In this document: one piece after another, positions 1-13,984 of the stretch
Numbering within the stretch: position 1 is the first letter of the stretch
Layout: each line of letters opens with the position of its first letter
Source of the DNA: Candidatus Sordicultor aquaticus
GTDB taxonomy: Bacteria > Atribacterota > Atribacteria > Atribacterales > Caldatribacteriaceae
Reading direction: 5' to 3'
DNA length: 13,984 bases
NCBI GenBank assembly: GCA_018056825.1
Contig: JAGPEW010000005.1
Coordinates: 1 to 13,984, forward strand
The notes under the pieces: model-generated
What the model saw: only the letters and a program-made list of their open reading frames with translations
Databases searched by the model: none
What the model was told of the DNA's origin: nothing
Translations under genes and position numbers: made by a program

Positions 1-346
1 TTCTATTCCAGATAAAAAAAACCGGGGCTTTAATCTCCTCTAATAATTCCTGTATTCTTTGGTAAAGAGGAATTAATTGCTTATTCTTTACTTTAAATTG
101 TCCATTTAGTTGTTTAACTATTAATTGGCTATCACAATAAAATTCAACTAGATCAGCTGGCAGATTCTTAATTTCTTCCAAGCCTCTAATAACTGCCTGA
201 TATTCAGCAATATTGTTTGTTCCGGTGCCCATAATCTCATTAATCTTTTTCCATAATTCACCATCTCGGTAAATAACTACCCCAATAGCCATATTACCTG
301 GATTAGGAATGCAAGAGCCATCTGCTCGTACTAATATTTTGGTCAT
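1..346 (-). CDS. rnhA: Ribonuclease HI-like protein. Start codon at 344-346; the C-terminus runs off the window at position 1.
   Basis: Reverse-complement translation gives MTKILVRADGSCIPNPGNMAIGVVIY...TNNIAEYQAVIRGLEE. This matches the RNase H type-1 signature (DGSC..NPG..G.G, TNN.AEY.A...L). Confidence 0.75.
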   Translation of the reverse strand, partial: MTKILVRADGSCIPNPGNMAIGVVIYRDGELWKKINEIMGTGTNNIAEYQAVIRGLEEIKNLPADLVEFYCDSQLIVKQLNGQFKVKNKQLIPLYQRIQELLEEIKAPVFFIWNR

Positions 347-360
347 AAAATCCCTCTTTT

Positions 361-837
361 TTAAGAACGATAAACAGAATTAAGTTTTTCTTTTAGAAAT
401 GACCTTAAATATGCTACTTCATCAATAAAATGAACTTTACCTTCTTCCTGGTATGGTTTAAGCCAGTTACCAGCATCAAATCTAAATAATATTACTTCCT
501 TACCATAGTTTAAGGCCAGGGCAATTTCAGAAATAGTTCCAGCCCTACCCGGTAAAGCTACAATTATATCGCTACTTAAGATATTAATTACATTTCTAGC
601 TATCCCCATACCAGTAACTATAGGAATATCTATATACTGTGACGCCCAATGAGGTTCATCAGTTGGTAAAATACCTATGGTCATGCCACCATAATCTTTA
701 GCCCCTCTTGCTGAAGCTTCCATGATACCGGAGGCTCGACCTCCATTTAACAGAATCCACCCTTCCTGGGCAATCATGGCTCCAATTTGATAGGCATATT
801 CTTCATCTTCTGGATTTATAAATTGAGCACCACCCAT
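361..837 (-). CDS. LOG / TIGR00725-family Rossmann-fold protein (SLOG, lysine-decarboxylase-like nucleotide-binding).
   Basis: The 158-aa ORF contains GGRASGIMEASARGAKDYGGMTIGILP and PGRAGTISEIALAL, which are typical LOG/TIGR00725 motifs. Confidence 0.7.
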   Translation of the reverse strand: MGGAQFINPEDEEYAYQIGAMIAQEGWILLNGGRASGIMEASARGAKDYGGMTIGILPTDEPHWASQYIDIPIVTGMGIARNVINILSSDIIVALPGRAGTISEIALALNYGKEVILFRFDAGNWLKPYQEEGKVHFIDEVAYLRSFLKEKLNSVYRS

Positions 838-1310
838 AACCCCAATAATTATTTTTTTAATGGAACATCCCCCTCCTTTTTTAAAATAATAAATTTTTTA
901 CTATTTTTACTTTTTATTTTATTATATACTATACTATAATTATGTCATTTAGATAATACAAGATTTTGGTAGGTATTTTCAGGAATTAACTTGCCAATGA
1001 GTTAATAAAACTTGTCCTCGTGAAAAGGGTGAAAGATATACTTACCTCAAGAAATAAATTAAAGAAAAAGAAGAAACCTTCTCTATAGATAACTAGATCA
1101 GAAGGCAAGCTAAAATTCCAGTACCTAAAGCTATTAGTCTTTAAATTAACGATAATGGTAGGTCAGCAGGTTTTTTAGGAGATTTTCCAGTTCCTTGATT
1201 AGCAATTAAGAAAAGAGAGAACAATGGGACACTTACTAACTGTGGTAAAAGAAGTAAATACCTCTTGACTATTTTAGGTAAGGTAATACCGCCTACCGAA
1301 AATATCCTTG

Positions 1311-1343
1311 ATAACTAAAACTAAAGCAAAACCCCTCTATTTA
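1311..1343 (-). terminator. Possible oligo-T (archaeal-type or weak intrinsic) terminator after the zinc-ribbon gene.
   Basis: On the minus strand, immediately after the TAA stop at 1344-1346, the sequence reads GAGGGGTTTTGCTTTAGTTTTAGTTAT. There are three T-runs but no strong hairpin. Confidence 0.2.
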
Positions 1344-1583
1344 TTATCTTTTAAAAATTGAACCATCTTGGAGGCCTCGTCTTGCCGGTTTTACTCCTAT
1401 CTTCTCCGCTTTTGCCCCACACTTAGGACAAAATTTATAGTTTTGCCAAAATCTCCAGATGAAGCCACAGTGGGAACAGGCTATAGTCAGCGGTTCACCA
1501 CACTCTCGGCAATAATCGTCCCCACTACTGGCTATGGTTGCTTTACATTTAGGGCATTGAAATGCCCCGCTTTTTCCCTCCAT
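1344..1583 (-). CDS. Small double zinc-ribbon protein.
   Basis: 79 aa with two Cys4 ribbons: CPKC...CREC and CSHC...CPKC. It lies 75 bp downstream of the GvpO-like gene on the same strand. Confidence 0.65.
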   Translation of the reverse strand: MEGKSGAFQCPKCKATIASSGDDYCRECGEPLTIACSHCGFIWRFWQNYKFCPKCGAKAEKIGVKPARRGLQDGSIFKR

Positions 1584-1658
1584 TTTCCTCTTCCTTTCTT
1601 TTTTATACCTTTGTATTTCAAATATTATTTTGTTAGCCTTTCTTTATCCGTCTTCCCT

Positions 1659-1916
1659 TTATCCTTCTTCTCCAGTGTCACTGCGTTTACGCAAGCCCTT
1701 TCTTTCGTAGCTAATGAGCTCGCCATCTTCATTTAAAATAACCTCATAATTTCCTAAGAGATCCATAGCATCAGGAATAGATTTTTTTTCCACCATTTCA
1801 ATAGTAACATGCCAACCCTTTTCATCTTTAAATACTCCCGTAACTCCTGAGGGTTTTAGTTTAGAAAGTTCCATTAATTCTTTTACTGCACGTTCAATTG
1901 CCTCGTTTGCCTTCAT
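1659..1916 (-). CDS. gvpO: GvpO-like gas-vesicle protein.
   Basis: The 85-aa ORF contains GVTGVFKDEKGWHVTIEMVEKKSIPDAMDLLGNYEVILNEDGELISYERKG. This fits the GvpO pattern (DDGW.V.V.VVE...PD..D..G.YEV.LD.DGEL..Y.R). A GGGGGAG Shine-Dalgarno sits about 10 nt upstream. Confidence 0.6.
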   Translation of the reverse strand: MKANEAIERAVKELMELSKLKPSGVTGVFKDEKGWHVTIEMVEKKSIPDAMDLLGNYEVILNEDGELISYERKGLRKRSDTGEEG

Positions 1917-1968
1917 TCGGGTACCGCTCCCCCCTTCTTTTTTGGTTGGAAATTCTAATTATGTTTGA

Positions 1969-2553
1969 TTATGCTTTTATAGCTTTAATTTGTAATATAC
2001 CATTTTTATAGCTTAAATATAACTCCTGTTTAACCGGGTAGGGTAAATTTACCTCTTTATAATATTCTCGCAAGTTACCCTGAGCAGAGATAGTGAGGAC
2101 ATTACCTTTTACCTCAGTTTTAATATCTTGCTCGGCTACCCCCGGTAATTCAGCAATTATCTTTAGGTAATCCCCTTCATCGAAGATATCTATCATTACC
2201 TCTTTTTGCTGTTTTAAAGCTGAGTTTTTCGTCTTTGAAGAAGGTCTAGGATTCCCCACCGTAGTTCGAGGAGGAATAATTGTCCTTCTCCCTTCCTTGG
2301 AGTCTATTTTTTTTAAAGGAGTTACTTTTAACTGTCGGTCTACCTCTTTATTAATCACCCTTAGTCTTTCCTTAAAGGCTTCTGATTTTTCTAATTCTTT
2401 GGTAATATCTCCCAAGCCTGGAATAAACTTCCCCAGTCCGCGGACGACACTACCCGCTACTCCTTCTGCTTCCTCTTCTTTGTCTTTGGCTTCCAACTTT
2501 TTAAATTTCTCTTCTAGTTCTTTTAGCTTTTCTTTCTGGTCTTGATCTTCCAT
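1969..2553 (-). CDS. gvpH: GvpH-like protein with a C-terminal Hsp20/alpha-crystallin domain.
   Basis: The C-terminus reads IDIFDEGDYLKIIAELPGVAEQDIK...SYKNGILQIK, an alpha-crystallin-like beta-sandwich. The N-terminal half is K/E-rich. It is paralogous to the ORFs at 10400-10939 and 4180-4677. Confidence 0.6.
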   Translation of the reverse strand: MEDQDQKEKLKELEEKFKKLEAKDKEEEAEGVAGSVVRGLGKFIPGLGDITKELEKSEAFKERLRVINKEVDRQLKVTPLKKIDSKEGRRTIIPPRTTVGNPRPSSKTKNSALKQQKEVMIDIFDEGDYLKIIAELPGVAEQDIKTEVKGNVLTISAQGNLREYYKEVNLPYPVKQELYLSYKNGILQIKAIKA

Positions 2554-2578
2554 TTTATCCCTCCCCTAGGAAGTTTAA

Positions 2579-3835
2579 TTATTTACCTTTACTTCCTTTA
2601 CTTTCTTCTGCCGAGGTAGTAGGTTTATCCACAAAGCTATAAGGGGGCCAGGGCCCTGAGAAATGAACGGATAGCCCTTCCATATTATTAATTATTTCCA
2701 GCTCATTTCCCAACTCCTCAACCTTCTCTTTAGGCACCAAACAAGATAGATTCATCATCATTACCTTGTTCTTATCCACCTTCTTGGTCTTTTCCACCTT
2801 AATTTCTTCCACACATTTTTTTATTCTTCCATAAAATTCCTCAAAATATTTATCCGCCAGCTTATCCATCTCTTGTTTTGCGATATTCTCCAGCTTTTGC
2901 TTATACATATAAGCCATTCCTGGAGATTTGGAGGCCATTTCCTCTTTTATTTTTCTAATCTCCTCACTTTGTTTTGAAATTTGTTCACTTATTACTTGAG
3001 GATCGTAGGAGATCTGTATTCCATATTCCTCTTTTCCTTTAATCTTCTTTATAATTGTCTGATAACTTTCGTAATCTTCTTTTAGCCAATCCTTTACTAC
3101 CTTGGTGGAATCAGCATTATCTTTAGGCTGAATTATGGTATCAAAGCCCAGCGGAAGGATGGTATCAAATCTCTCTTTGGCTACATCGAGGACTCTTTGA
3201 TGGCTCTTTACCCACTCCTTTACCTTCTCATTATCCTCGGAGGCATAGGGCTCCAGAGGACAGTTATGAACAATAGCACATATACCTTTATAAGGGATAG
3301 TATAAACTTCACTACCCTCTATCCCTATTTTCCCTAAGCTTATTGTTTCTCCCCTATTGGCTATACCATAAAGGTATCTCCCTTCAGCTCCCCTGGAAAT
3401 TACCGGCTCTGCTTCCCTCAATTTAGCTGAACTAACTGTTTTCCTCTCTTTACTTTCACTTTTTACTGACTCGGCAGAGGGAGAAGTTTTTTTCTCAGAT
3501 TGAACCGCTGGTTCTTCTTTCTCTTTAATCTCACTTTTGTCTAACTCTTCGGGGGAGGTGAGTTTTTGGAGTTCTTCCAGAGACTTCTCTAAATTTAAAA
3601 CTTTAGCCTCTATTTTTTCTAATCTTCGAGTCAAAGAAGATTGGTCTTCTTTTTGTTCGGCTTCCTTCTTAATCTCTCCCCTTTGTAAGGCAGCTATTAA
3701 GGTCATCAAAGCGTGAAGCTCTGCCTCATCAGGTTCCTGGTTCATTACCGCCAGCATCTTTTTAATATTTAACTCATTTATCTCTTCCCCCATACTATTT
3801 AACGCTAAAGCTAAAGCTATATAGGTACATTCCAT
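2579..3835 (-). CDS. gvpL: GvpF/L-family protein with a long N-terminal extension (P1/P2-stalk-like domain plus charged linker).
   Basis: The C-terminal ~265 aa read RYLYGIANRGE...ILPLGFDTII...HFSGPWPPYSFV, which are GvpF/L hallmarks. The N-terminal ~57 aa read MECTYIALALALNSMGEEINELNIKKMLAVMNQEPDEAELHALM. A ~95-aa E/K/S-rich linker follows. Confidence 0.8.
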   Translation of the reverse strand: MECTYIALALALNSMGEEINELNIKKMLAVMNQEPDEAELHALMTLIAALQRGEIKKEAEQKEDQSSLTRRLEKIEAKVLNLEKSLEELQKLTSPEELDKSEIKEKEEPAVQSEKKTSPSAESVKSESKERKTVSSAKLREAEPVISRGAEGRYLYGIANRGETISLGKIGIEGSEVYTIPYKGICAIVHNCPLEPYASEDNEKVKEWVKSHQRVLDVAKERFDTILPLGFDTIIQPKDNADSTKVVKDWLKEDYESYQTIIKKIKGKEEYGIQISYDPQVISEQISKQSEEIRKIKEEMASKSPGMAYMYKQKLENIAKQEMDKLADKYFEEFYGRIKKCVEEIKVEKTKKVDKNKVMMMNLSCLVPKEKVEELGNELEIINNMEGLSVHFSGPWPPYSFVDKPTTSAEESKGSKGK

Positions 3836-3866
3836 TTGTACAACCCCCGTCTTCGTTAAAGTCTCC

Positions 3867-4193
3867 TCAAATACCTTGCTCCTCAGCTTCCTCTTTCCAT
3901 CTCTCCGGATTTACTATCCTATCTACTACATCATCTACTATCTCATCCAAACCATCCCTTACTGCTTGCACCGAATCGGTAATCCCTTGTTCCTCTTTTA
4001 TCTCTTCAATGGCTATATCTAAATCCATTAAAGCTTCTCCCAATCTTTCCACTTCCTCTTCAGTTAAAACTCCGCTTTCCATTCTTTTAAAACCCTGAAT
4101 CCTCAAAGCATCTCTAATTATTTCCACTAAAGCCATTACCAGACCTAATAAACCGTGTTTCAGATTATCTTCATCAACATCAAGGGTAGACAT
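3867..4193 (-). CDS. gvpK: GvpK-like gas-vesicle protein.
   Basis: 108 aa containing LLGLVMALVEIIRDALRIQGFKRMESGVLTEEEVERLGEALMDLDIAIEEI. This fits the GvpK consensus (LV.LV..VVELLR....RQA.RR.E.G.L...E.ERLG..LM.LE). Confidence 0.65.
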   Translation of the reverse strand: MSTLDVDEDNLKHGLLGLVMALVEIIRDALRIQGFKRMESGVLTEEEVERLGEALMDLDIAIEEIKEEQGITDSVQAVRDGLDEIVDDVVDRIVNPERWKEEAEEQGI

Positions 4194-4677
4194 CTTTTTT
4201 CTCCTTCTTTAAGACAATTTCCAAAATACCATTTTTATAAGATTTCTTCACTATCCTTAGAGGCTGGGATAGTTTAATACTGCCCAGGTCAGCCAAAATC
4301 ACTAAACTATCCTCCTCCTCAAAGAGGTCTACTCCTCCTTTTCTGATAACCGGGATATCCTCAGTTAGCCACCAGGAGAAGAGGATCTTTTCTCCACTCA
4401 GAGGATCGATCTTCGCCTCCTCAAACTTTACCAGGGGTCGGCCTAAGATCTTCAGGGAGGTAGGATTTATCACCTCTTTTAAGCGGCTTAATACTTCATT
4501 ATGGTTTTTTGCCCCTATTAAGTTACTCAATTCTTGGATATTAGCATATCTATTCCTATAGAGAAAGATCAATATATCTCTGCTCTTTTTGTCTAAAACC
4601 TCGGCTAATTTATTTATACCCTCTTCTTTTTCTTTATCATCTATTCCTTTTCTCTCTTTATCTTTTTTCTCTTTCAT
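4180..4677 (-). CDS. Fusion of a winged-helix (wHTH) domain and a degenerate Hsp20/GvpH-like domain.
   Basis: The middle reads SRDILIFLYRNRYANIQELSNLIGAKNHNEVLSRLKEVI, which is wHTH-like. The C-terminus reads VDLFEEEDSLVILADLGSIK...SYKNGILEIVLKK, matching the C-termini of the two other Hsp20-like ORFs. Its first 14 nt overlap the gvpK start. Its stop overlaps the start of the 4674-5075 ORF (ATGA). Confidence 0.55.
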   Translation of the reverse strand: MKEKKDKERKGIDDKEKEEGINKLAEVLDKKSRDILIFLYRNRYANIQELSNLIGAKNHNEVLSRLKEVINPTSLKILGRPLVKFEEAKIDPLSGEKILFSWWLTEDIPVIRKGGVDLFEEEDSLVILADLGSIKLSQPLRIVKKSYKNGILEIVLKKEKKDVYP

Positions 4678-5075
4678 TCTTTATATCCACACCTATAGCA
4701 ACCATTTTTCTCAAACTGTTCGGTTACTAACTTGGTCCCACATTTTGGGCATTTCTGGTAATATCCCCTCTTTTTATCAATTTCCTCCAACCCGACGGAA
4801 AGACCAGAACTTTTTTTGGCCTTAGCTAACTCAATATCCTCTTCGGTCCCTTTCCAACCACAGACAAAGCATCCCTTTTCTATTAAGTCCTTTTTTATCA
4901 GCTTTTTGCCACATTGAGGACAAAAGGCATAATACTCACTTTTTTCCAATTTTTTCTTTTCTTCTTCTTGAGCCTCTTTTACATAATCTAATACTTTATC
5001 ACCAACTCCCAGAGTGGGATCGATCCCCAAAAATCCTAAATCACTAAATCTCCCCTTCTCTTTTTTTTCACTCAT
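4674..5075 (-). CDS. Double zinc-ribbon protein.
   Basis: 133 aa with two ribbons, CPQCGKK...GCFVCGW and CPKCGTK...GCYRCG. The signature matches the ribbon tails of the GvpA-like ORFs. GGAGAAGCG precedes the ATG. Confidence 0.65.
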   Translation of the reverse strand: MSEKKEKGRFSDLGFLGIDPTLGVGDKVLDYVKEAQEEEKKKLEKSEYYAFCPQCGKKLIKKDLIEKGCFVCGWKGTEEDIELAKAKKSSGLSVGLEEIDKKRGYYQKCPKCGTKLVTEQFEKNGCYRCGYKE

Positions 5076-5153
5076 CGCTTCTCCTTTCTTTGGAGATCCT
5101 TTATCTCCTGCTCAATTACTTCAATCTCTCGCTGGCAATATTCGAAATACCAT

Positions 5154-6245
5154 TTAGCATACTTTATTCATTTTTCTCTTTACTCTCGGGCTTACCCACC
5201 CACAGTAAATACATCCTCTCTCCAAAAGTTCTTTAACCGGGCTCTCTTTTCCACAATGAGGGCAGGTCTCCCTTTCCCCTTCTTCCCCTTCCTTACTTTT
5301 AGATAAGAGCTGCTCCCATTCCTGCATTGCCTTTTTATTCCCTGAAAAATACTCTTCTCTCCCTTCGTGTCTTACCACCAGTTCTTCTTCTACCTTTAAT
5401 ATCCCGCCACCTTCTTTGGCCTTCTCTATTCTTACCCCTTTTATTTCTTTTAGCTCTACCTCTAAGGCAATACTTCCATCAAAGTCATACCACCAGAGGA
5501 GTCTTTGGTTAGTAAGATAAAGATAGCCAGCTTTCCAGGTCTTACTCTTGGTCCCACCAGGGGCAGGAAGCTCCATTAAGTACCACATCTTCTCCTTGCG
5601 CACTAATTCCTCATTTTCCACTAAGAATTTTGAGGCATTATCGTCTAATACTGGTGCCGGTATCTCTTCAAATGGAAGTCCCTTCTCTTTCATTTTCTCC
5701 TCTATAGCCTTTTTTACCGTAGAAGCATCGGTAGGGTGAAGTTTTTCTATTCCCCCACTTTTAAGGAAGAGATAAAGATAGTCTGTCTTTTTTTTGGCGA
5801 TATTCTCCTTCCTTTCCATAGCATAGCCTTTAATATCTTCATATCTTGTCTCAAAAAGTATCTCGGAAGGCTCTTTTCTATACAAGAAGACCCTTTGATT
5901 AGTAACATAAATATGTCCTGGTCTCCAATTATGCCATATCCCCTTAGAATGCCACTCTGAACCAAACATCTTGATGATAACTTCTTCACCTTCTCGCAAT
6001 AAATTATCCTTCCCCTTTCGCCTTATTTCATCTCGGGCCGCCATCCTTTGTGCTTCATCCCAATCTTTCCACATTCCATAATCTAACATAGTCTGCATCC
6101 CAGCCAAAGCAGTCTTTAATTTAATCCCCAACAGAGGAATCCCCGCTATATGAATAATCAGATCGGTATCCAACATTATACCTTTATCTAGAATCCGGTC
6201 TAAGAGGTCTACTAAGGTAGTTTCTGTATTACGAGTCGGTTCCAT
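5154..6245 (-). CDS. GvpA/J/M-like domain fused to two bacterial-PH/GRAM-like domains and a C-terminal zinc ribbon.
   Basis: The N-terminus reads [48 protein letters not shown], a GvpA-family core. Two repeats follow, [16 protein letters not shown]... and [18 protein letters not shown]..., each with the G.LY.TNQRL bPH/GRAM hallmark. The C-terminus is CPHCGKES...GCIYCGW. Confidence 0.75.
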   Translation of the reverse strand: [363 protein letters not shown]

Positions 6246-6249
6246 TTAC

Positions 6250-6630
6250 TTAATTTTCCTCCAAGGGCAGGGGCGAAATTAATTTTTTTTGGGCAGCTTT
6301 GGCCTTCGCACTAATCCATCCACACCAGGGGCAACCTTCATTCATCAACTCTTCAGCAGAAACCCGCTTACCACATTGGGGACACTCTTCCTTAGCTACC
6401 TTAGCCTCTTGCCAGGCAGCAGTTTCGTAATTTGTGCCACTGGGAAATTCCAGACCATATTTAGCCGCGGTCTCAAAAGAGGCCAGGGCTGCCCTTACCT
6501 TTACCCCTAAGAGCTCCACTCCCGCTACCGATACGGTAATATCTGCATTGATAACCAATCCCTTATCTAAGATACGGTCAATAACATCCACCAAAGTAGA
6601 AGAATCATCCCGCGAAGCTTCTAAAGCCAT
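6250..6630 (-). CDS. GvpA/J/M-like protein with a C-terminal zinc ribbon.
   Basis: The N-terminus reads [50 protein letters not shown]. Compare the GvpA consensus [45 protein letters not shown]. The C-terminus is [23 protein letters not shown]. It lies 4 bp from the preceding gene. Confidence 0.8.
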   Translation of the reverse strand: [126 protein letters not shown]

Positions 6631-6633
6631 CTT

Positions 6634-6870
6634 TTATTCCTCCTTTTTTCTAATAATCTTTAACCTTTCCACCAAATCTGCTTCCAACTGAGCGTAATCT
6701 GCTTCACTTATCTTACCTTCATCTAAGAGTAATTGAAGTTCCTTAAGCCTTTTCTTTACCCCCTCCTCGGTTACCAATCGCTCTTTATCTACTTCATTTA
6801 CAATCCCTTCCAGGACTTGCTTCCCTAATTGTAAGGGGGTCGATAATAAACTACGAATAATAAAAGCCAT
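6634..6870 (-). CDS. gvpG: GvpG-like gas-vesicle protein.
   Basis: 78 aa with a hydrophobic N-terminus (MAFIIRSLLSTPLQLG) and the GvpG-like C-terminus KELQLLLDEGKISEADYAQLEADLVERLKIIR. Confidence 0.6.
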   Translation of the reverse strand: MAFIIRSLLSTPLQLGKQVLEGIVNEVDKERLVTEEGVKKRLKELQLLLDEGKISEADYAQLEADLVERLKIIRKKEE

Positions 6871-6884
6871 AGTCTATCCTCCCT

Positions 6885-7628
6885 TTAGGTCCCTTTTAGT
6901 TTTATACTAACAAAATTATAAGGTGGAACAGGACCAACATATTTAAACTTTAATTTATCTTCATATTTTTGAGCTAACTCATTTACCCTTTGGTCGAAAT
7001 TTTTTTCTTTATCTTTATCTACTAAAAAAGAAGAATTAAGGAGCATTTCAATACTAAGAGGTTTATTAAGACGACTGTCAAAGGCTATCTCCTTAAGAGA
7101 GTTATAAATTCTTTGGCCATACTTTCTTTCCCATTCAGTAACCGTGGACTCCACCAATTTACCTACCTTAAGCTGGGTTTCTTGAGCCTCCTTTGCCGAG
7201 GAAGAAGCAATTTTTTTTCTTAACTCCTGAAAGTTCTTACCCCTACTTTCAATTTCTTTAATAACTGCCTCCCTTTCCCAAAAAACTTTTACTCCTACCT
7301 CTACTTTGCCCTGGAGTTTTTTCATTTCTTTTTTTATTTCGGGATAATTCAATTCGAGGAGCTCAATTATTTTCTCTTCATTTTCCGCGACCGTTCCAAA
7401 ACTCATAGGGAGAAGGAGGTATTGTCTCATAATCTCTTCCAGAACCCGAGTATGAGCTAAAATATTCGCTCGCGTAGGATCATATTCTTTAACTTCAGCC
7501 TCGCTTACTACTGCCGCTAAATCCTGATAATTGATCGTGTATACTTTGTTTTTTTCTATCCCCAAAAAATTAAACTCTTTTCTCTCTGGTTCCTCTATAA
7601 AACCATAAATATATCTACCTATTGGCAT
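6885..7628 (-). CDS. gvpF: GvpF/L-family protein (paralog 2).
   Basis: RYIYGFIEE...DLAAVVSE...LLPMSFGTV...VGVKVFWE...YVGPVPPYNFVSI. Confidence 0.8.
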   Translation of the reverse strand: MPIGRYIYGFIEEPERKEFNFLGIEKNKVYTINYQDLAAVVSEAEVKEYDPTRANILAHTRVLEEIMRQYLLLPMSFGTVAENEEKIIELLELNYPEIKKEMKKLQGKVEVGVKVFWEREAVIKEIESRGKNFQELRKKIASSSAKEAQETQLKVGKLVESTVTEWERKYGQRIYNSLKEIAFDSRLNKPLSIEMLLNSSFLVDKDKEKNFDQRVNELAQKYEDKLKFKYVGPVPPYNFVSIKLKGT

Positions 7629-7648
7629 TTATTCCTCCCCTTATAGCT

Positions 7649-9796
7649 TTATTCTAAACGGGTCTTTAAGGTCTCAATAGCCTCTGCAAAATGTTTCCTG
7701 GAAATTTTAAGGGAAGCACACTCACTTTTCCCTTCTTTTCCCTCCGTCTTCTTTTTAATAAATTCCCTGATCGCTGCCATAGAGGCTTCCCGGCAGATAG
7801 CTTCTATATCCGCCCCGCTTAAACCTTCTGTTTCTTCGGCTAATCTAGCAGGGCTTACTTCTTCCAGCGGTTTCTTCTTCAGGTGAACCTGAAAAATCTT
7901 TTCTCGGCTCTTTTTATCGGGGAGGGGTAAATCTAAAATCACGTCAAATCTCCCCGCTCTCAGGATAGAAGGGTCTATCAAATCCTTTCTATTAGTAGCG
8001 GCTAAGACTACTACTCCCTTCAGCTCCTCAATCCCATCGAGTTCAGTCAAAAATTGGCTAATTACCCTTTCGGTTACCTGAGAATCACCACTCATCCCCC
8101 GCTGGGGGACTAAAGAATCAATCTCATCTAAAAACAAAATAGTAGGAGCCGCTTGCTTGGCTTTAAGAAATACTTCTCTAACCCCCTTTTCTGATTCTCC
8201 GATATATTTGGACATAAGCTCTGGTCCCTTCACCGCTATAAAATTTACTTCACTTTCATTAGCTAAGGCTTTGGCTATTAAAGTCTTTCCACACCCTGGA
8301 GGTCCAGATAATAGAATCCCCTTAGGCGGCCTGGTATGGGCATAGTCAAATAAATCAGGATATTTTAAGGGCCACTCTACTGCCTCGATGAGGGTTTGTT
8401 TAATCTCCTCCAGTCCGCCTACATCCTCCCATTTTACATTAGGAACCTCCACAAAAACTTCCCTGATGGCTGAAGGCTCTACCTCTTTTAAAGCCTCTCT
8501 AAAATTTTCCATAGTTACCTCTAATTCCAAAAGTAACTTATAAGGAACTTCCTCTAATTCAAAATTAATATTGGGTAAGATGCTTCGCAAGGCGTTCATC
8601 GCTGCTTCTCGGCATAAAGCCTCTAAATCAGCCCCTACAAAACCATGAGTAATCTGAGCTATCCTCTCTAAATCTACATCTTTAGCTAAAGGCATTCCCC
8701 GGGTATGAATATGAAGAATTTCTAAGCGAGCCTTTTGGTCGGGGACCCGGATAGAAATTTCCCGATCAAACCTTCCTGGTCGGCGGAGAGCAGGGTCAAG
8801 AACATTAGGAATATTGGTAGCTCCAATGACTATCACTTCTCCTCGAGATTCTAATCCATCCATCAAAGCTAATAGTTGTGCCACCACTCTTTTTTCCACC
8901 TGCTTTTCTCCCCCCATTTCTTCCCGCTTGGGGGCAATAGCATCAATCTCGTCGATAAAGATTATAGCTGGGGCATTGGCTTCCGCTTCCTTAAATACAT
9001 TTCTTAAACGAGCTTCACTTTCTCCATAAAACTTTCCCATAATCTCGGGTCCACTTATATGGCTAAAATAAGCCTCTGTTTCCTGAGCCACCGCCCGAGC
9101 CATCAAAGTCTTTCCACATCCTGGAGGCCCATAGAGTAAAACCCCTTTAGGGGGTTCAATGCCCAATCTCTCAAAAATTTGGGGATATTTTAAAGGTAGC
9201 TCAATCATCTCTCTAACTCTCTGTATTTCCCGGTCCAACCCGCCAATATCCTCATAAGATATCCTCAATCTTTTCCCTTTTGCCTCTTTCTCCCCTTTTA
9301 ACTCAATAACCGTCCCGCTATGAATCAAAACTACTCCCTGGGGAATAGTAGAAACTACCATAAAGTCAAAACTGCGCGCCCCAAAGAGATTAGCTCTAAT
9401 CCTGTCCCCCGCGACAAGGGGTAGACCTTCTAACAGACTGCCTAAATATTTAGTATCCTCACCACCCCGCATCGATCTCATTAAGGCTAGAGGAGAGAGG
9501 ACTATTTTATCAGCTAAGCGGTATTCAGTCTTTTGAATGCTTACTTTTTCATCTAATCCAGCCTGAGCATTTTCTCTTAATAAGCCATCCATCTGAATAA
9601 TGGCTTTCCCTCTATCTTCGGGGTAGGCTGGCATCACTTTAGCTACCGTCCTTCTTTTGCCATAAACCTCTACTATATCCCCTATTTCCACACCTATTTT
9701 TTTAAAATCGGCGGGGTCTATCCTAACTATTGCCCTGCCTACATCTTTGGGTTTGGCTTCGGATATCTTTAGAGTTAATTCGGTTTCTTTAGTCAT
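7649..9796 (-). CDS. Cdc48/VAT/p97-like double-ring AAA+ ATPase (N-domain + D1 + D2).
   Basis: 715 aa. The N-terminal double-psi-barrel-like segment reads [35 protein letters not shown]. There are two Walker A motifs ([18 protein letters not shown] and [19 protein letters not shown]) and two Walker B motifs ([12 protein letters not shown] and [12 protein letters not shown]). SRH-like arginines are present. Confidence 0.9.
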
Positions 9797-9813
9797 ACTT
9801 TTTTTATTCTCCG

Positions 9814-10386
9814 CTATTTTTTATTATAAATTAAGTAGCTAATCTTAATATCCCGGGATAAATACTTATCTACCCGGTGTTCACTTCCTATAAATAAAAT
9901 TCCAGTCTCTCCTTCTCTTAAGGTCTTATTTATTCTCTGGGCGATATAATTATCTCTTCTTATGAGTAATTGCTTACCTCCTTTTTTTTGTTCCTTTTTA
10001 TCCGAAGAGGTGGCTATATCTTTAATATAGTTATACTCCTCAAGGAGTAGATCTTTGCTCTCTGTCCCTTCCAATTTAGCCCCTTTATTAATTAATTCTA
10101 AGATTATCTTATAATTTATGCTCCCTCTTTCGGCTAACTTCTGGACTATTTCTAACTCTTTACCACAAAGAGGCAATCCATCCTGGTATATTCTCACCTT
10201 CTCATAATTCAATTGTAGGCTTTCAATCTTATCCTTTATCCACTGCCAGAGCTCATTTACTAATTTAAGATGTTCTTCCCATTTTTCTTCCCCAAATTTT
10301 AAGACATACTCTTCCCTTAAATGAGTAGCCACCAACCCCATTTCTAGCTCCGTGTGAATGATGGGAATATAAATTAATCTCCTCAA
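9814..10386 (-). CDS. Hypothetical protein (cluster orphan, 190 aa).
   Basis: Intact ORF 17 bp from the Cdc48-like gene and 13 bp from the Hsp20-like gene. No motif recognised. K/E/I-rich. Confidence 0.5.
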
Positions 10387-10399
10387 TTTTTCTCCTGAC

Positions 10400-10939
10400 T
10401 CAAGCCTTCTCCAGTTTGATCTCTAATATCCCATTTTTGTAAGAGGGCTCCATGCTCTCTTTCTTTACCTTAGAAGGAAGCAATATTTCTTTAGCATATT
10501 TTCTATCCTTATTTTCGGCAGCTAATTTAAGAATATCTTCTTCCAGATTAATTTTAATATTCTCCTCAGCAATTCCCGGTAGTTCCGCAATTACTAAAAT
10601 ATGCTCCTTTTCATCGAATACATCGACTATTGGTTCCCTGACTTCCTCTATTACTGGACCTTTAGGTGTTTCTTTGATATTACCAAAAGTCTCGATTATA
10701 GGTTTATCCCCTACCAGAGTCCTTATGCTAAAACCATAAACCCCTTTAGCCTTTTCCGGTAACCCCTTAATCTCGCCAACTTTTTTAAATTCCCCGCCTT
10801 CTTTACTCACCTTATCTACTAAGTTAATCAAATCACCAATTCCTTTAAATATTCCTCCTAATCTCACTTTCCCCTTACTAAAATCAAATTCTATACCTTC
10901 TTTTTCTTGCTTATCCTCTTTTTCTGTCATTTTTCTCAC
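10400..10939 (-). CDS. gvpH: GvpH-like Hsp20/alpha-crystallin-domain protein (paralog 2).
   Basis: The C-terminus reads VDVFDEKEHILVIAELPGIAEENIK...SYKNGILEIKL. The N-terminal LGGIFKGIGDLINL parallels LGKFIPGLGDITKEL of the 1969-2553 ORF. Confidence 0.6.
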   Translation of the reverse strand: MRKMTEKEDKQEKEGIEFDFSKGKVRLGGIFKGIGDLINLVDKVSKEGGEFKKVGEIKGLPEKAKGVYGFSIRTLVGDKPIIETFGNIKETPKGPVIEEVREPIVDVFDEKEHILVIAELPGIAEENIKINLEEDILKLAAENKDRKYAKEILLPSKVKKESMEPSYKNGILEIKLEKA

Positions 10940-11023
10940 CCCCTCGCATGATGCCTTTTACCTTTTATCTGTAATACCCCTTTATTTACTTTCTTTATAT
11001 TTATGGTGGACTATCTATTCATT

Positions 11024-11794
11024 TTATTTTAAACTCAAATTAACAAAACTATATGGTGGTGTTGGCCCGATATATTTAAACCTTATCCTTTCCCCATACT
11101 GTTTATCTAATTCGCTTATCTGCTGGTCAAACTCTTTTTCCCGAGTCCTATCTACTAAAAAAACTGCATTTATCAGCATCTCATCACCAGAAGTATTATT
11201 AAGATGAAAATCATAAGAAATTCTTTTTAAGCTATTTACTATCTTTTGACCCTCTTGTTCCCTTTTTTCCTCTAAAGCCTTCTTAACCATTTTACCCAAT
11301 TTTACTTTCTCTTTATAATTTTCCTGGTCATTATCCTTCTCCTGGCCTGACCCTTTAGCTATTTTTTCTCTATAAGATTTTATTTTCTCATCTTCCTCCG
11401 CGATCTCTTGAAAAATAAACTTCATCTCTTGCCAGTAAGCCTTTACTCCTAACTCTATCTTATTATCCAGATCCCTTAATAAACCTTTAAGTTCTAAATA
11501 TCTCCTTCTTAAAAGACTGCGCACCTCTTCGGCACTACTTGCCACCGTGCAAAATCTCATCGGAAGAACAGTATAATCTCTCATTACCTCTTCCACTACC
11601 TTTTCATGAGCAATTAAATTCTCTCGACTTATTACATATTTATCCATAGGAAAGTTGCTAATTACGGCGCTAAGGTCCTCATAACCAATAGTGGATACAA
11701 TATCTCCCCGCCCACCAATGCCCAAGGGGCCAAAATTTCTTCCCTCGTTAGTCCCAATAATGCAGTAAATATATTTACCCTCCTCTATCATCAA
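11024..11794 (-). CDS. gvpF: GvpF/L-family protein (paralog 3).
   Basis: KYIYCIIG...DLSAVIS...VLPMRFCTV...ELGVKAYWQ...YIGPTPPYSFVNL. This is the strongest GvpF-like match of the three. Confidence 0.85.
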   Translation of the reverse strand: MMIEEGKYIYCIIGTNEGRNFGPLGIGGRGDIVSTIGYEDLSAVISNFPMDKYVISRENLIAHEKVVEEVMRDYTVLPMRFCTVASSAEEVRSLLRRRYLELKGLLRDLDNKIELGVKAYWQEMKFIFQEIAEEDEKIKSYREKIAKGSGQEKDNDQENYKEKVKLGKMVKKALEEKREQEGQKIVNSLKRISYDFHLNNTSGDEMLINAVFLVDRTREKEFDQQISELDKQYGERIRFKYIGPTPPYSFVNLSLK

Positions 11795-12102
11795 ATCTTC
11801 TCCCTTCGCTGCCTTATTTCCTCCTCTAAGGCTCGAATATAAATAGGGGATAATTTTCTTCCTTTTATTTTAGCCCATTCTTGAGCCATTATTTTACGGG
11901 TAAGGACTCCTAAAGAAGCTACGTTTATCCTCTTTGGTTCCTTCCTCTTCCCTCTAAGCCTTTCCCTTCCTTCTTCTAACCATTTTTCTTCTTCCTTTTC
12001 CTTATCTCCTATTTTTCCAGCCTGATATTCTTTTAAATCTAGATAGGTTATCTCTAAAAAGGAATCTTCTTTTTTCATAACAGGATAGAATTTACCTCCC
12101 AA
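11791..12102 (-). CDS. Hypothetical small basic protein (103 aa, cluster orphan).
   Basis: The ORF lies between gvpN and the gvpF paralog. Its stop overlaps the gvpF start (ATGA). It is K/R/E-rich with no recognised motif. Confidence 0.45.
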   Translation of the reverse strand: MGGKFYPVMKKEDSFLEITYLDLKEYQAGKIGDKEKEEEKWLEEGRERLRGKRKEPKRINVASLGVLTRKIMAQEWAKIKGRKLSPIYIRALEEEIRQRREKI

Positions 12103-12124
12103 ATTAACAAAGCATTGGCCTTAA

Positions 12125-13042
12125 TTAGCAATATTTATTGATGAGAGCCTTTACTATATTTTTTACTTTAGTTTGACTAAGACTACTCCCTAAGCGGCTA
12201 CTCTCCGAAGCTAAAATATCCTGACAAATTTCTCTAAAAATTTTATTCTTAGCACTTACTGCGCCACCTAAAATTCCCAAACTTTTAGCGATCATGATAC
12301 AACCCCGAATAGTGGGTTTAAATTCACATTCTTCATAAGTGCGGAGTTCCCTAACGATATCTACAATTTTTTCTGCCTCAGCATAAGATAATTCAGATTT
12401 AGCTTGAGTAATAGCAATTTCAGTCTCTCGGTCAAAGTAATCTAAATCTATAGTAATCATCCTATCCCGCAAGGCATCCTGACTTCTATGAACCCCAGCA
12501 TATTCTTCGGGATTGCTGGTAAAAATGGCTACAAAGTTAGGATGAACTTTTAAATAATTTTCCTGTCCCCGCGCTACTGGTAAATCCATCATCTTTTCTT
12601 GTAAAATAGAAAGAAGGATATTATTGGCTTCAGGACGAGAACGGGTAAATTCATCATAGATAAGGGTAAAGCCATACTCTACGGCTACAGTCAAACGGTT
12701 ATCTACCCAACTCCTCTGTACATCTTCCTCCGCTTTCATCACCGAATGAATAAAATTATCTACTACTCTCCTGGTCCGATAACCGTGCTCTCCCCCCACT
12801 AAATCAGAGGTAGTAAATTCGTCATCTCCATGAATCATAATTACTGGTCGATTTATTAGATGGGCTATATGTAGGGCTAGAGTGGTCTTTCCGGTTCCCG
12901 TTGGTCCCCTAAAATGGACCGGAAAGCCTGCTCTAATATAGCCTAAGGTTCGCGTCGTTACCTCTTTGGTAAACTTTGTCTCCACAAAATTAGGCAGGGC
13001 GCGAGCTTTTAATACAGTTGCTATTTCGGCTGCCATAACCAT
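12125..13042 (-). CDS. gvpN: GvpN, a CbbQ/NirQ/MoxR-type single-domain AAA+ ATPase.
   Basis: 305 aa with Walker A FRGPTGTGKTTLALHIA and Walker B FTLIYDEFTRS. The overall length and pattern are typical of GvpN. Confidence 0.85.
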   Translation of the reverse strand: MVMAAEIATVLKARALPNFVETKFTKEVTTRTLGYIRAGFPVHFRGPTGTGKTTLALHIAHLINRPVIMIHGDDEFTTSDLVGGEHGYRTRRVVDNFIHSVMKAEEDVQRSWVDNRLTVAVEYGFTLIYDEFTRSRPEANNILLSILQEKMMDLPVARGQENYLKVHPNFVAIFTSNPEEYAGVHRSQDALRDRMITIDLDYFDRETEIAITQAKSELSYAEAEKIVDIVRELRTYEECEFKPTIRGCIMIAKSLGILGGAVSAKNKIFREICQDILASESSRLGSSLSQTKVKNIVKALINKYC

Positions 13043-13057
13043 AAATCACCTCACCGT

Positions 13058-13453
13058 TTAATATTCAATATCCACTTCTTTAAAATTGGAAAGCTTAGAA
13101 CCTTTTGTAGCTATTGGAGGGGGGTCTGCTCTTCTCTCGCGCTCCTTCTGAAGTTTGCGTCTTAATTCCATAATTTTTCGGTTTTTATTCACTATCATAG
13201 CTAATTTCCTTCGGCTAGCCAGAAGTCTCTCCCTGTTTCTCTGCATAGCCAAATCCTGTTTAGTAAACCTTTGTCTTTCTCTTTCTAAAGCCTTAGCCAA
13301 GTCTTCTTCATCTACCAAAGAGTACATTTCTTTTAATTCTTCCTCGGTTTTAGATAAAGAATTAGTAGTTTTAATTTTTTGTTCTTCTCTATTCTCCCTA
13401 CTGGTTTTGATATCTCGAAAGGTCTTAATGTTTCTTAAACTTTCATTTTTCAC
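13058..13453 (-). CDS. Hypothetical R/K/E-rich coiled-coil protein in the GvpC-like position. Predicted GTG start.
   Basis: 131 aa, for example RERQRFTKQDLAMQRNRERLLASRRKLAMIVNKNRKIMELRRKLQKERERR. The start codon is GTG (cac at 13451-13453), preceded by the Shine-Dalgarno AGAGGTGG. It lies directly upstream of gvpN. Confidence 0.5.
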   Translation of the reverse strand: MKNESLRNIKTFRDIKTSRENREEQKIKTTNSLSKTEEELKEMYSLVDEEDLAKALERERQRFTKQDLAMQRNRERLLASRRKLAMIVNKNRKIMELRRKLQKERERRADPPPIATKGSKLSNFKEVDIEY

Positions 13454-13500
13454 CGTTAACCACCTCTATTATTTTTTCGCCAATATTGGTAAAATATCTT

Positions 13501-13522
13501 CTCTCCCCTTTACTCGGGAGAG
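13501..13522 (-). promoter_or_regulatory. GC-rich hairpin (7-bp stem, 8-nt loop) in the 128-bp spacer upstream of the cluster.
   Basis: ctctccc(13501-13507)-ctttactc-gggagag(13516-13522) is a perfect inverted repeat. On the minus-strand transcript it is followed by AAGATATTTTACC. It could be a weak terminator or attenuator between the regulator gene and the gvp operon. Confidence 0.3.
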
Positions 13523-13581
13523 TCCTGGAATCCTTCCGGATATTATGCCTATAAATATTTAACGACTAAGCCAATTTTTGT

Positions 13582-13950
13582 CTAAAGAGGGTAATACAAA
13601 TTATCTTCTTTCCTGATCTTGTTTTCTTCTACCAACTCTTTAGTTATGGTTATATACCATCTCCAATCTTTACCTATTTCTGCACCAATTTCCACAAGCT
13701 TTATCCCCTCAGGATGAGATTTTATTAAATTTAATACCTGCTCTTTCTCTTTCTCGGAGGTTTCCTCCCCCATCTTCTCCACTTTTTCTAGAACTTCTTC
13801 TTTTGTTTTTTTACCTTCAGAAACTGTAGAAACCGGCTTTACCCCTCTTCTCTTTTCTTGCAGACTAGAGGTCAACTCTTGCCAGGAAGCAGACATCTCC
13901 TTTAGATCAGCCCTTATCTCCTCTTGAACTTTATGAAAATCACTTAACAT
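13582..13950 (-). CDS. Putative winged-helix DNA-binding protein. It may be 5'-truncated by the window, since the frame stays open to 13984.
   Basis: The C-terminus reads EQVLNLIKSHPEGIKLVEIGAEIGKDWRWYITITKELVEENKI, which is wHTH-like. There is no in-frame stop between the first ATG (13950) and the window end. Confidence 0.45.
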   Translation of the reverse strand: MLSDFHKVQEEIRADLKEMSASWQELTSSLQEKRRGVKPVSTVSEGKKTKEEVLEKVEKMGEETSEKEKEQVLNLIKSHPEGIKLVEIGAEIGKDWRWYITITKELVEENKIRKEDNLYYPL

Positions 13951-13984
13951 ACTACTTACTTCACTTTTTATCCCCTGATTATAG

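Follow-up and report, generated by a model that had tools for sequence, protein, structure and literature searches.

The 13,984-nucleotide stretch analyzed here (contig JAGPEW010000005.1 of Candidatus Sordicultor aquaticus, positions 1 to 13,984; hereafter the window) contains a gas-vesicle (gvp) gene cluster, one gene of which encodes a complete GvpL-like protein of 418 amino acid residues (2579–3835, minus strand, from the list of open reading frames). The N-terminal ~50 residues of this protein are a true homolog of helices 1–3 of the N-terminal domain of the archaeal ribosomal stalk protein P1 (aL12). Only this domain is homologous to a stalk protein, and the whole protein belongs to the GvpL/GvpF family. 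With a confidence slightly above even, we propose that the P1-type head was exapted in a bacterium and that, together with the coiled-coil helix behind it, it would form a dimeric hub carrying two flexibly tethered GvpL cores.

From its N-terminus, the protein consists of a P1-stalk-like helical head (residues 1–57; 3665–3835), a short charged spacer, EAEQKEDQ (residues 58–65; 3641–3664), a conserved amphipathic heptad helix predicted to form a coiled coil (residues 66–93; 3557–3640), a disordered tether rich in E, K, S and P (residues 94–151; 3383–3556), the GvpL/GvpF core domain (residues 152–403; 2627–3382) and a short disordered C-tail, KPTTSAEESKGSKGK (residues 404–418 plus the stop codon; 2579–2626), all on the minus strand. 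Residues 1–152 correspond to positions 3380–3835 of the window. In the AlphaFold2 (AF2) models, the predicted local distance difference test (pLDDT) was below 50 at residues 406–418 of the C-tail, and the spacer was also modeled with low confidence, with pLDDT below 50 at residues 54–65 in the model of the full protein and at residues 56–58 in that of the head. The start codon is an ATG at 3835–3833, with a Shine-Dalgarno-like GGGGG run 8 nucleotides upstream (3844–3848, minus strand). Since more than 100 homologs begin at the same Met-Glu, the start call of this gvpL is sound.

The relationship of the head to P1 was found by several methods. A phmmer search of residues 1–67 against all Protein Data Bank (PDB) sequences returned 3a1y_A, the N-terminal domain of P1 of P. 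horikoshii, as the sole significant match (E = 5.2e-7). Counted from this alignment, which is ungapped over 51 residues, 20 residues (39%) are identical. NCBIfam model TIGR03685 (ribo_P1_arch) matched residues 4–55 with E = 1.1e-6 and was also matched by all 38 heads of a non-redundant set of homologs (best E, 9.7e-11). The profile built from these 38 heads matched 3a1y_A over profile positions 1–51 (E = 2.9e-16), and its comparison with 33 bona fide archaeal P1 sequences by hhalign gave 99.0% and E = 6.3e-18 over 46 columns. When 1.84 billion representatives were searched exhaustively with the head profile (HMMER), 554 proteins were found. Next after the GvpL fusions were archaeal P1 proteins of ~100–110 residues beginning with MEY[IV]YAALLLH..GK; at least 33 among the 150 matches listed were full-length proteins of 95–120 residues with the archaeal stalk motif GL.ALFG at the C-terminus, and hundreds of true P1 were returned at whole-library E-values of 1e-7 or below. 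Helices 1–2 are the segments best conserved between GvpL heads and P1. The sequence-only reading of this DNA had aligned ~57 residues with P1. The N-terminal peptide quoted there is present, but the alignable part comprises helices 1–3, approximately residues 1–50.

The predicted structure agrees with the sequence comparisons. The head was modeled confidently as helical by AF2, with helices at residues 3–14, 21–30 and 37–51 (to 56 in the longest delimitation) and pLDDT of 83–94. The first three Foldseek matches in the PDB were 3a1y_A (probability 1.0; TMt 0.73; 38% identity) and then human chains of P1 and P2. P1/P2 made up seven of the top 16, with P2, wheat and yeast stalk chains coming after rank 3. 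The Foldseek E-values (0.048) are weak for so small a domain. Moreover, the Pfam family Ribosomal_60s (PF00428; cut-off, 28.1), which had been suggested as a check on the head, gave no match to the window protein in a Pfam scan; head plus linker gave only sub-threshold noise (ACC_epsilon, CRISPR_Cse2 and UPF0154), and PF00428 matched 16 of the 38 relatives weakly (best E = 0.002). The lack of such a match had been named beforehand as grounds to reject the P1 reading, and by the letter it applies to this sequence. The weak Foldseek E-values and the missing PF00428 match are what could speak for a chance or compositional resemblance of a generic Ala/Leu-rich helix or coiled coil to P1. They are overridden by four more sensitive, independent and significant tests, by the hundreds of true P1 recovered in the exhaustive search and by P1/P2 being the top structural neighbors. 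In addition, the heads of P0001, a close relative, and P0002 align with archaeal P1 without gaps from residue 1. The head is thus a P1 homolog by both sequence and fold, not a generic coiled coil; chance similarity is excluded by the sequence, profile and fold tests, and we regard it as vanishingly improbable.

Helix 1 of the window head carries a 2-residue insertion, AL, visible in the head alignment. Codons 7–12 read GCTTTA GCTTTA GCGTTA (ALALAL; 3800–3817, minus strand). Here, 6 bp are duplicated in tandem, so that helix 1 is two residues longer than in nearly all relatives and in archaeal P1. A sequencing error unique to the window was ruled out because the close relative L036 carries the same duplication. 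The insertion is thus a natural polymorphism of the lineage.

The segment after the head had been described as a flexible linker of ~95 residues rich in E, K and S. The composition of residues 58–151 (94 residues; E/D 24%, K/R 20% and S/T 19%) and the predicted disorder of residues 94–151 agree with this description, but residues 65–93 are a conserved heptad helix. This helix was modeled in the head model with pLDDT of ~85. Between residues 66 and 93, the heptad a/d positions are L, L, I, V, L, L, L and T and are strongly hydrophobic (88% of the a/d positions vs. 10% elsewhere). The consensus in relatives is DPRIIKFLTSEL...QLE.LL.EL. Residues 66–93 are therefore predicted to form a coiled coil. 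The tether itself (residues 94–151) had pLDDT of 26–39 and contains 24% E+D, 21% K+R, 22% S+T and 7% P. Its length and sequence vary among homologs, and column conservation is absent from the homolog alignment.

The GvpL/F fold that the sequence-only reading had placed after the linker is clearly present. PF06386 matched residues 152–403 with E = 1.5e-65 and 222.1 bits (cut-off, 23.6) over profile positions 1–245 of 245. The best NCBIfam model was NF045778 (GvpL), whose score of 182.6 bits lies under the equivalog cut-off of 200; the window protein is thus GvpL-like but uncertified as an NF045778 equivalog. The pLDDT of the core was mostly 85–96, except for one 10-residue block at 73, and the full model matched the GvpF structures 6l5d_B (E = 2.6e-15; TMt 0.80) and 4qsg (E = 2.3e-13) in Foldseek. 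Family model, two-lobed alpha/beta fold and gvp cluster context all place the protein in GvpL/GvpF. Its scores stay below the whole-protein thresholds of the P1/P2 families, as neither PF00428 nor TIGR03685 (16.5 bits with the full protein and 28.9 bits with the head alone; cut-off, 100) is reached. No stalk-type GLxALFG tail was found at its C-terminus, which consists of the core and KPTTSAEESKGSKGK; the bona fide P1 alignment has an invariant L..F at the C-terminal end. Stalk proteins are ~100–115 residues long with a hinge after the N-terminal domain, whereas the window protein has 418 residues, an extra coiled-coil helix and a C-terminal domain of 250 residues. The missing factor-binding tail, the low scores, the wrong size and the lack of an expected P0 rule out that it is a ribosomal stalk protein.

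A look-up by exact sequence returned no record of the window protein. Head, helix and tether were found together in ~112 of the 120 best homologs (E ≤ 1e-109). The heads diverge to 25–40% identity across the family and fall into three subtypes: the window type, MEC/YTYIALALNSMGEEINE; the MNYLYIALALREAG type; and the abundant MENIFYA.LALHIAGKPINKEN type. The subtypes are 30–39% identical to each other and 32–34% (maximum, 41–52%) identical to archaeal P1, and these pairwise identities do not decide the monophyly of the three subtypes relative to archaeal P1. L10 and L12 of the head are invariant, and Y5, A11, N23, I24, L28, E37, L40 and L50 are conserved in at least 90% of the heads. In an unbootstrapped neighbor-joining (NJ) tree of the core domains from 53 non-redundant loci, all headed GvpLs group together in a single clade. 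Its sister clade bears another helical N-terminal module, of ~60 residues, '...IREIVRAEL.P.LR.AIRD.ISE...' (loci L005, L007, L008, L009, L012, L040 and L052), followed by an acidic low-complexity linker, and the outer clades are without extension. Two loci of the sister clade are from archaeal metagenome-assembled genomes (MAGs), Methanophagales (L012) and Methanomicrobia (L007). The alternative module has no match among Pfam families, is unrelated to P1 and could represent another tethered head of GvpL, so far undescribed. A horizontal transfer from an archaeon probably brought the P1-type head into the ancestor of a single GvpL clade.

The same distribution bears on whether the head has any part in oligomerization. 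It could be a passive appendage, such as a solubility tag, a degradation or regulatory handle or a relic, given that it was lost repeatedly in the clade, that head-less orthologs occur in otherwise identical clusters and that the GvpLs of model organisms function without it. However, the core head residues are invariant or nearly so across heads of only 25–40% identity, helix and tether are conserved together with the head, and the analogous helical module and acidic linker of the sister clade suggest selection for a tethered N-terminal module. We consider a passive appendage improbable. The modularity, with one headed clade and a different module in its sister, is consistent with an accessory oligomerization or tethering module.

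Among the 78 loci, neither stand-alone P1 heads nor P0-like proteins were found, and heads occurred only at the N-termini of GvpLs. In the synteny comparison with 15 genome loci, no gene was found that co-occurs only with headed GvpLs, and in L002 the gene content of the cluster is the same although the head is absent. That no gene tracks the head argues for a self-contained function. These results also bear on a different use of the domain, in which a P1-type head dimer would clamp an amphipathic helix (residues 66–93 in cis or in trans, or a GvpG-like helix) and build higher-order GvpL arrays. Archaeal P1 dimers are each bound to a spine helix of P0 (PMC3794596). An amphipathic helix directly follows the head in all three subtypes, GvpG is encoded in the window, and of the pairwise interactions in Halobacterium, that between GvpL and GvpG is the strongest (PMC7688916). 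However, neither a P0-like protein nor an exclusive partner was found in the headed clusters, and the textbook a/d heptad of residues 66–93 is more simply explained by a coiled coil. A helix clamp is possible but unlikely. Its more elaborate form is rather unlikely: head dimers would clamp helix 66–93 of neighboring molecules, or a helix provided by GvpG or a different Gvp, into a self-made 'P0(P1)n'-like GvpL array that nucleates or caps the vesicle or, at the extreme, would dock on the translation machinery. If either clamping or docking were true, a P-stalk-type assembly would for the first time be known to operate in Bacteria and outside the ribosome.

A stalk-type head had been taken to argue for an archaeal host. 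An archaeal host is rejected on the identity and synteny of the flanking DNA with Atribacterota, and the named headed relatives are bacterial. Positions 1–922 (minus strand), which contain a fragment of an RNase H-like gene (1–~350) and a SLOG-cluster4 gene (361–837), are chromosomal DNA of Atribacterota: over 923 bp, the RNase H-like gene included, they are 92.6% identical to L081, a contig carrying a protein that NCBI places in 'Atribacteria bacterium 34_128'. The product of the SLOG-cluster4 gene, the sole non-gvp gene analyzed, shares 94% identity with P0270 of this bacterium, and all its other named matches are from Atribacterota. Synteny with L081 and with L078, a 136-kb relative, stops at ~922–937. 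Positions 1032–1269 resemble the region of a UPF0236 transposase in L078 (73–85% identity). In L078, genes for NAD-dependent LigA, GatCAB and Pol III alpha adjoin the SLOG gene, and no gvp cluster is present there. The gvp cluster of the window therefore resembles an island within a chromosome of Atribacterota, and the transposase-like region suggests that it was inserted by a mobile element. The GC content is 35–42%. The named headed relatives are from MAGs of Dehalococcoidia/Chloroflexi and one MAG of 'Clostridia', and on a 148-kb contig of a headed relative, YajC, Fur and Dtd are encoded beside the gvp cluster. The two archaeal gvp loci retrieved, those of Methanophagales and Methanomicrobia, have the different N-terminal module and no P1 head. 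The host is a bacterium, most likely of Atribacterota.

The bacterial host also bears on a role of the head at the ribosome. The sole known role of the P1 domain is ribosome attachment mediated by P0, and GvpF has been suggested to bind GvpA early, perhaps during translation (PMC11445434). The head could accordingly be imagined to dock GvpL on the stalk base, with GvpA/J/M-type proteins captured co-translationally, which, if true, would mean that hydrophobic shell proteins are captured as they are made. However, the host and all named headed relatives are bacteria, which are not known to have P0 spine helices; the head is missing from the retrieved gvp loci of archaea, in which P0 does exist; and helix 4 of P1 is not conserved. 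Tethering to the ribosome is therefore highly improbable.

A dimeric hub with tethered cores remains the reading that we favor. In P1/P2, the dimer interface is made by helices 1, 2 and 4, with helix 3 outside, and the tails extend ~125 Å from the dimer (PMC3794596); the interface helices were assigned here from the published description of the human P1-P2 dimer. Helices 1 and 2, the parts of the GvpL heads best conserved with P1, belong to this interface. By analogy with P1/P2, the head would homodimerize, and helix 66–93 would prolong the head dimer as a parallel coiled coil. The disordered tether of ~58 residues would free the two GvpL cores to move around the hub. The core would then serve as the catching module, here for small accessory proteins (GvpG/J/K/M-like), in place of the translation-GTPase-binding peptide of the stalk, and the bivalent platform might raise the local concentration of the components of the nucleation complex. 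GvpL of Halobacterium is a platform that touches all other accessory Gvps (PMC7688916), and GvpL of B. megaterium works with GvpS, GvpK and GvpJ in a proposed seeding step (PMC11445434). In a bacterial host, no P0 would compete for the head, which would make the domain an orthogonal dimerizer. Bacteria have uL10 and bL12 and are not known to have P0 spine helices. The orthogonality may account for the fusion being in bacterial and not in the retrieved archaeal loci.

Several results weigh against this reading or parts of it. Helix 4, which contributes to the dimer interface in P1, was unalignable, as the hhalign and profile matches end at ~47–51; the interface of the head may thus differ from that of P1. 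The predicted template modeling score (pTM) of the AF2 model of head plus helix was only 0.49. The 2-residue insertion in helix 1 of the window lineage could perturb packing. Within the headed clade, the head was lost several times (L002, L035, L037 and L045) and is therefore dispensable in some backgrounds. The distances among the subtypes match those to archaeal P1, so the case for a single acquisition depends on the unbootstrapped NJ tree of the cores. Finally, the host was assigned from a single junction in a metagenomic contig, for which a chimeric assembly is conceivable.

The gvp cluster of the window (1344–13950, minus strand) was delimited by Pfam scans and synteny with 15 genome loci. 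In order, it encodes a Zn-ribbon protein, GvpO, an Hsp20-like protein, the P1-headed GvpL, GvpK, a possible Hsp20-like protein and a Zn-ribbon protein; then a GvpA/J-like protein with PH-like domains, a GvpA/J-like protein with a Zn-ribbon, GvpG, GvpF and a CDC48-type AAA+ protein; and last an unknown protein, Hsp20, GvpF, an unknown protein, GvpN and two unknown proteins. The gvp genes recognized by Pfam were GvpO, GvpK, GvpG, Gas_vesicle (twice), GvpF (twice) and GvpN-type AAA_5. GvpG is a small helical protein (6634–6870), and the GvpN-type AAA+ is at 12125–13042. The two GvpF paralogs (247 and 256 residues) consist of the core only, without extension. A protein of 363 residues (5154–6245, minus strand) combines a Gas_vesicle domain (GvpA/J-type; E = 2e-12), two PH/GRAM-like domains (matches to Vps36, GRAM and bPH_3) and a C-terminal CxxC...CxxC zinc ribbon, an unusual architecture for the GvpA family that is kept in related clusters at 40–61% identity. 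Zinc ribbons are also found in a GvpA/J-like protein of 126 residues with a terminal CPxC...CPWC ribbon (6250–6630) and in two small, mainly double-zinc-ribbon proteins (4674–5075 and 1344–1583), all on the minus strand. The CDC48/p97-type double AAA+ ATPase (7649–9796, minus strand) has 715 residues and is 59–74% identical to its counterparts in related bacterial clusters. No canonical short gvpA gene (~70 residues) was found in the window, its end at 13582–13984 included. In the related locus L077, gvpA (1129–1335) is at the far upstream end of the cluster; the gvpA of the present cluster therefore probably lies beyond the end of the window.

Some further observations were made in the related loci. 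In one subclade, a gene for a ParA/MinD-like ATPase with the Walker motif ANPKGGVGKTTT is between gvpK and a head-less gvpL, at the site that the P1 head has in headed relatives (L041, 1604–1885; L046, 9124–9978; L048, 707–1450; L050, 2440–2856; L070, 9491–10333); it looks fragmented in some of these loci. In L056, head plus linker (141–635) and the GvpL core (521–1240) are in two overlapping reading frames, which is due to a frameshift, an assembly error or a natural split of the gene. The short 'head-less' database proteins P0077 and P0092 may stem from split calls of this kind. The Dehalococcoidia MAG SPRUCE 558 encodes two distinct headed GvpLs, each on its own contig (L001 and L003), which raises the possibility of head heterodimers or of two gvp clusters. 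On the contig with YajC, Fur and Dtd, L077 also has an archaeal-type flagellin gene (PF01917; 20627–21214) ~9 kb from the gvp cluster, another archaeal-type gene in a presumably Chloroflexota genome. Among the non-ribosomal proteins with P1 heads from the exhaustive search, P0145 (419 residues) and P0241 (430 residues) consist of tandem P1 heads and a Ser/Thr kinase and P0134 (203 residues) of P1 heads and a zinc ribbon. Their hosts are probably archaeal; if so, these proteins could be ribosome-tethered enzymes.

The fusion had been called unexpected, and in the literature searched we found no paper linking GvpL with P1 or the stalk and none on N-terminal extensions of GvpL in Atribacterota or Dehalococcoidia. 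As far as we found, the reuse of the P1 stalk domain in GvpL is thus apparently undescribed, and one automatic annotation of the Joint Genome Institute (JGI) names the homolog P0088 as 'ribosomal protein L12E/L44/L45/RPP1/RPP2'. The N-terminal domain of P1/P2 is regarded as characteristic of the ribosomes of archaea and eukaryotes. A P1-type domain that is widespread in Bacteria (Chloroflexota and Atribacterota) and non-ribosomal would be a clear case of transfer between domains of life and of exaptation. The nucleation by accessory Gvps is the least understood step of gas-vesicle assembly (PMC11445434), and a GvpL with its own dimerizing hub and tether makes a testable prediction on how many molecules form the seeding complex and how they are arranged, namely around a bivalent GvpL platform. 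The analogous but unrelated module of the sister clade suggests that tethered GvpL oligomerization may be a general, unnoticed feature of environmental gvp clusters. Moreover, head plus coiled coil is a compact module, orthogonal in bacteria, that could serve the engineering of gas vesicles as acoustic reporters.

Similar to aP1 (aL12), as in the P0-(P1)2 structure of P. horikoshii (3A1Y), the window protein has helices 1–3 starting at residue 1 and the same order of parts: a helical N-terminal domain, a flexible charged hinge and a C-terminal interaction module. Different from aP1, which ends in a GLxALFG tail and is ribosomal with P0, it has an extra coiled-coil helix and a GvpL core of 250 residues and is encoded in a bacterial gas-vesicle operon where no P0 is expected. 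The P1 heads of P0145, P0241 and P0134 are likewise reused on non-ribosomal effectors (Pkinase and Zn ribbon); these have no link to gas vesicles, and their heads are closer to canonical P1 and pass or approach the PF00428 threshold. The design of bL12 (L7/L12) is analogous, with an N-terminal dimerization domain, a flexible hinge and a C-terminal working domain ('fishing lines'). The N-terminal fold of bL12 is unrelated to P1, however, and bL12 is ribosomal; no sequence similarity of the head to bL12 was found in this analysis. The GvpLs with the alternative N-terminal module have the same position in the cluster and a similar layout of ~60 residues of helices and an acidic linker, but their module is unrelated to P1. 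Similar to GvpL of Halobacterium salinarum and Bacillus megaterium and to cyanobacterial GvpF (4QSG and 6L5D), the window protein has the PF06386 core fold and is encoded near gvpK, gvpG and gvpJ-like genes, and it presumably has the same scaffold or chaperone role. Different from these, however, it adds an N-terminal module of 151 residues: the solved GvpF chains of 237–244 residues consist of the core only, and GvpL of Halobacterium is 32 kDa (PMC7688916), compared with the 418 residues of the window GvpL.

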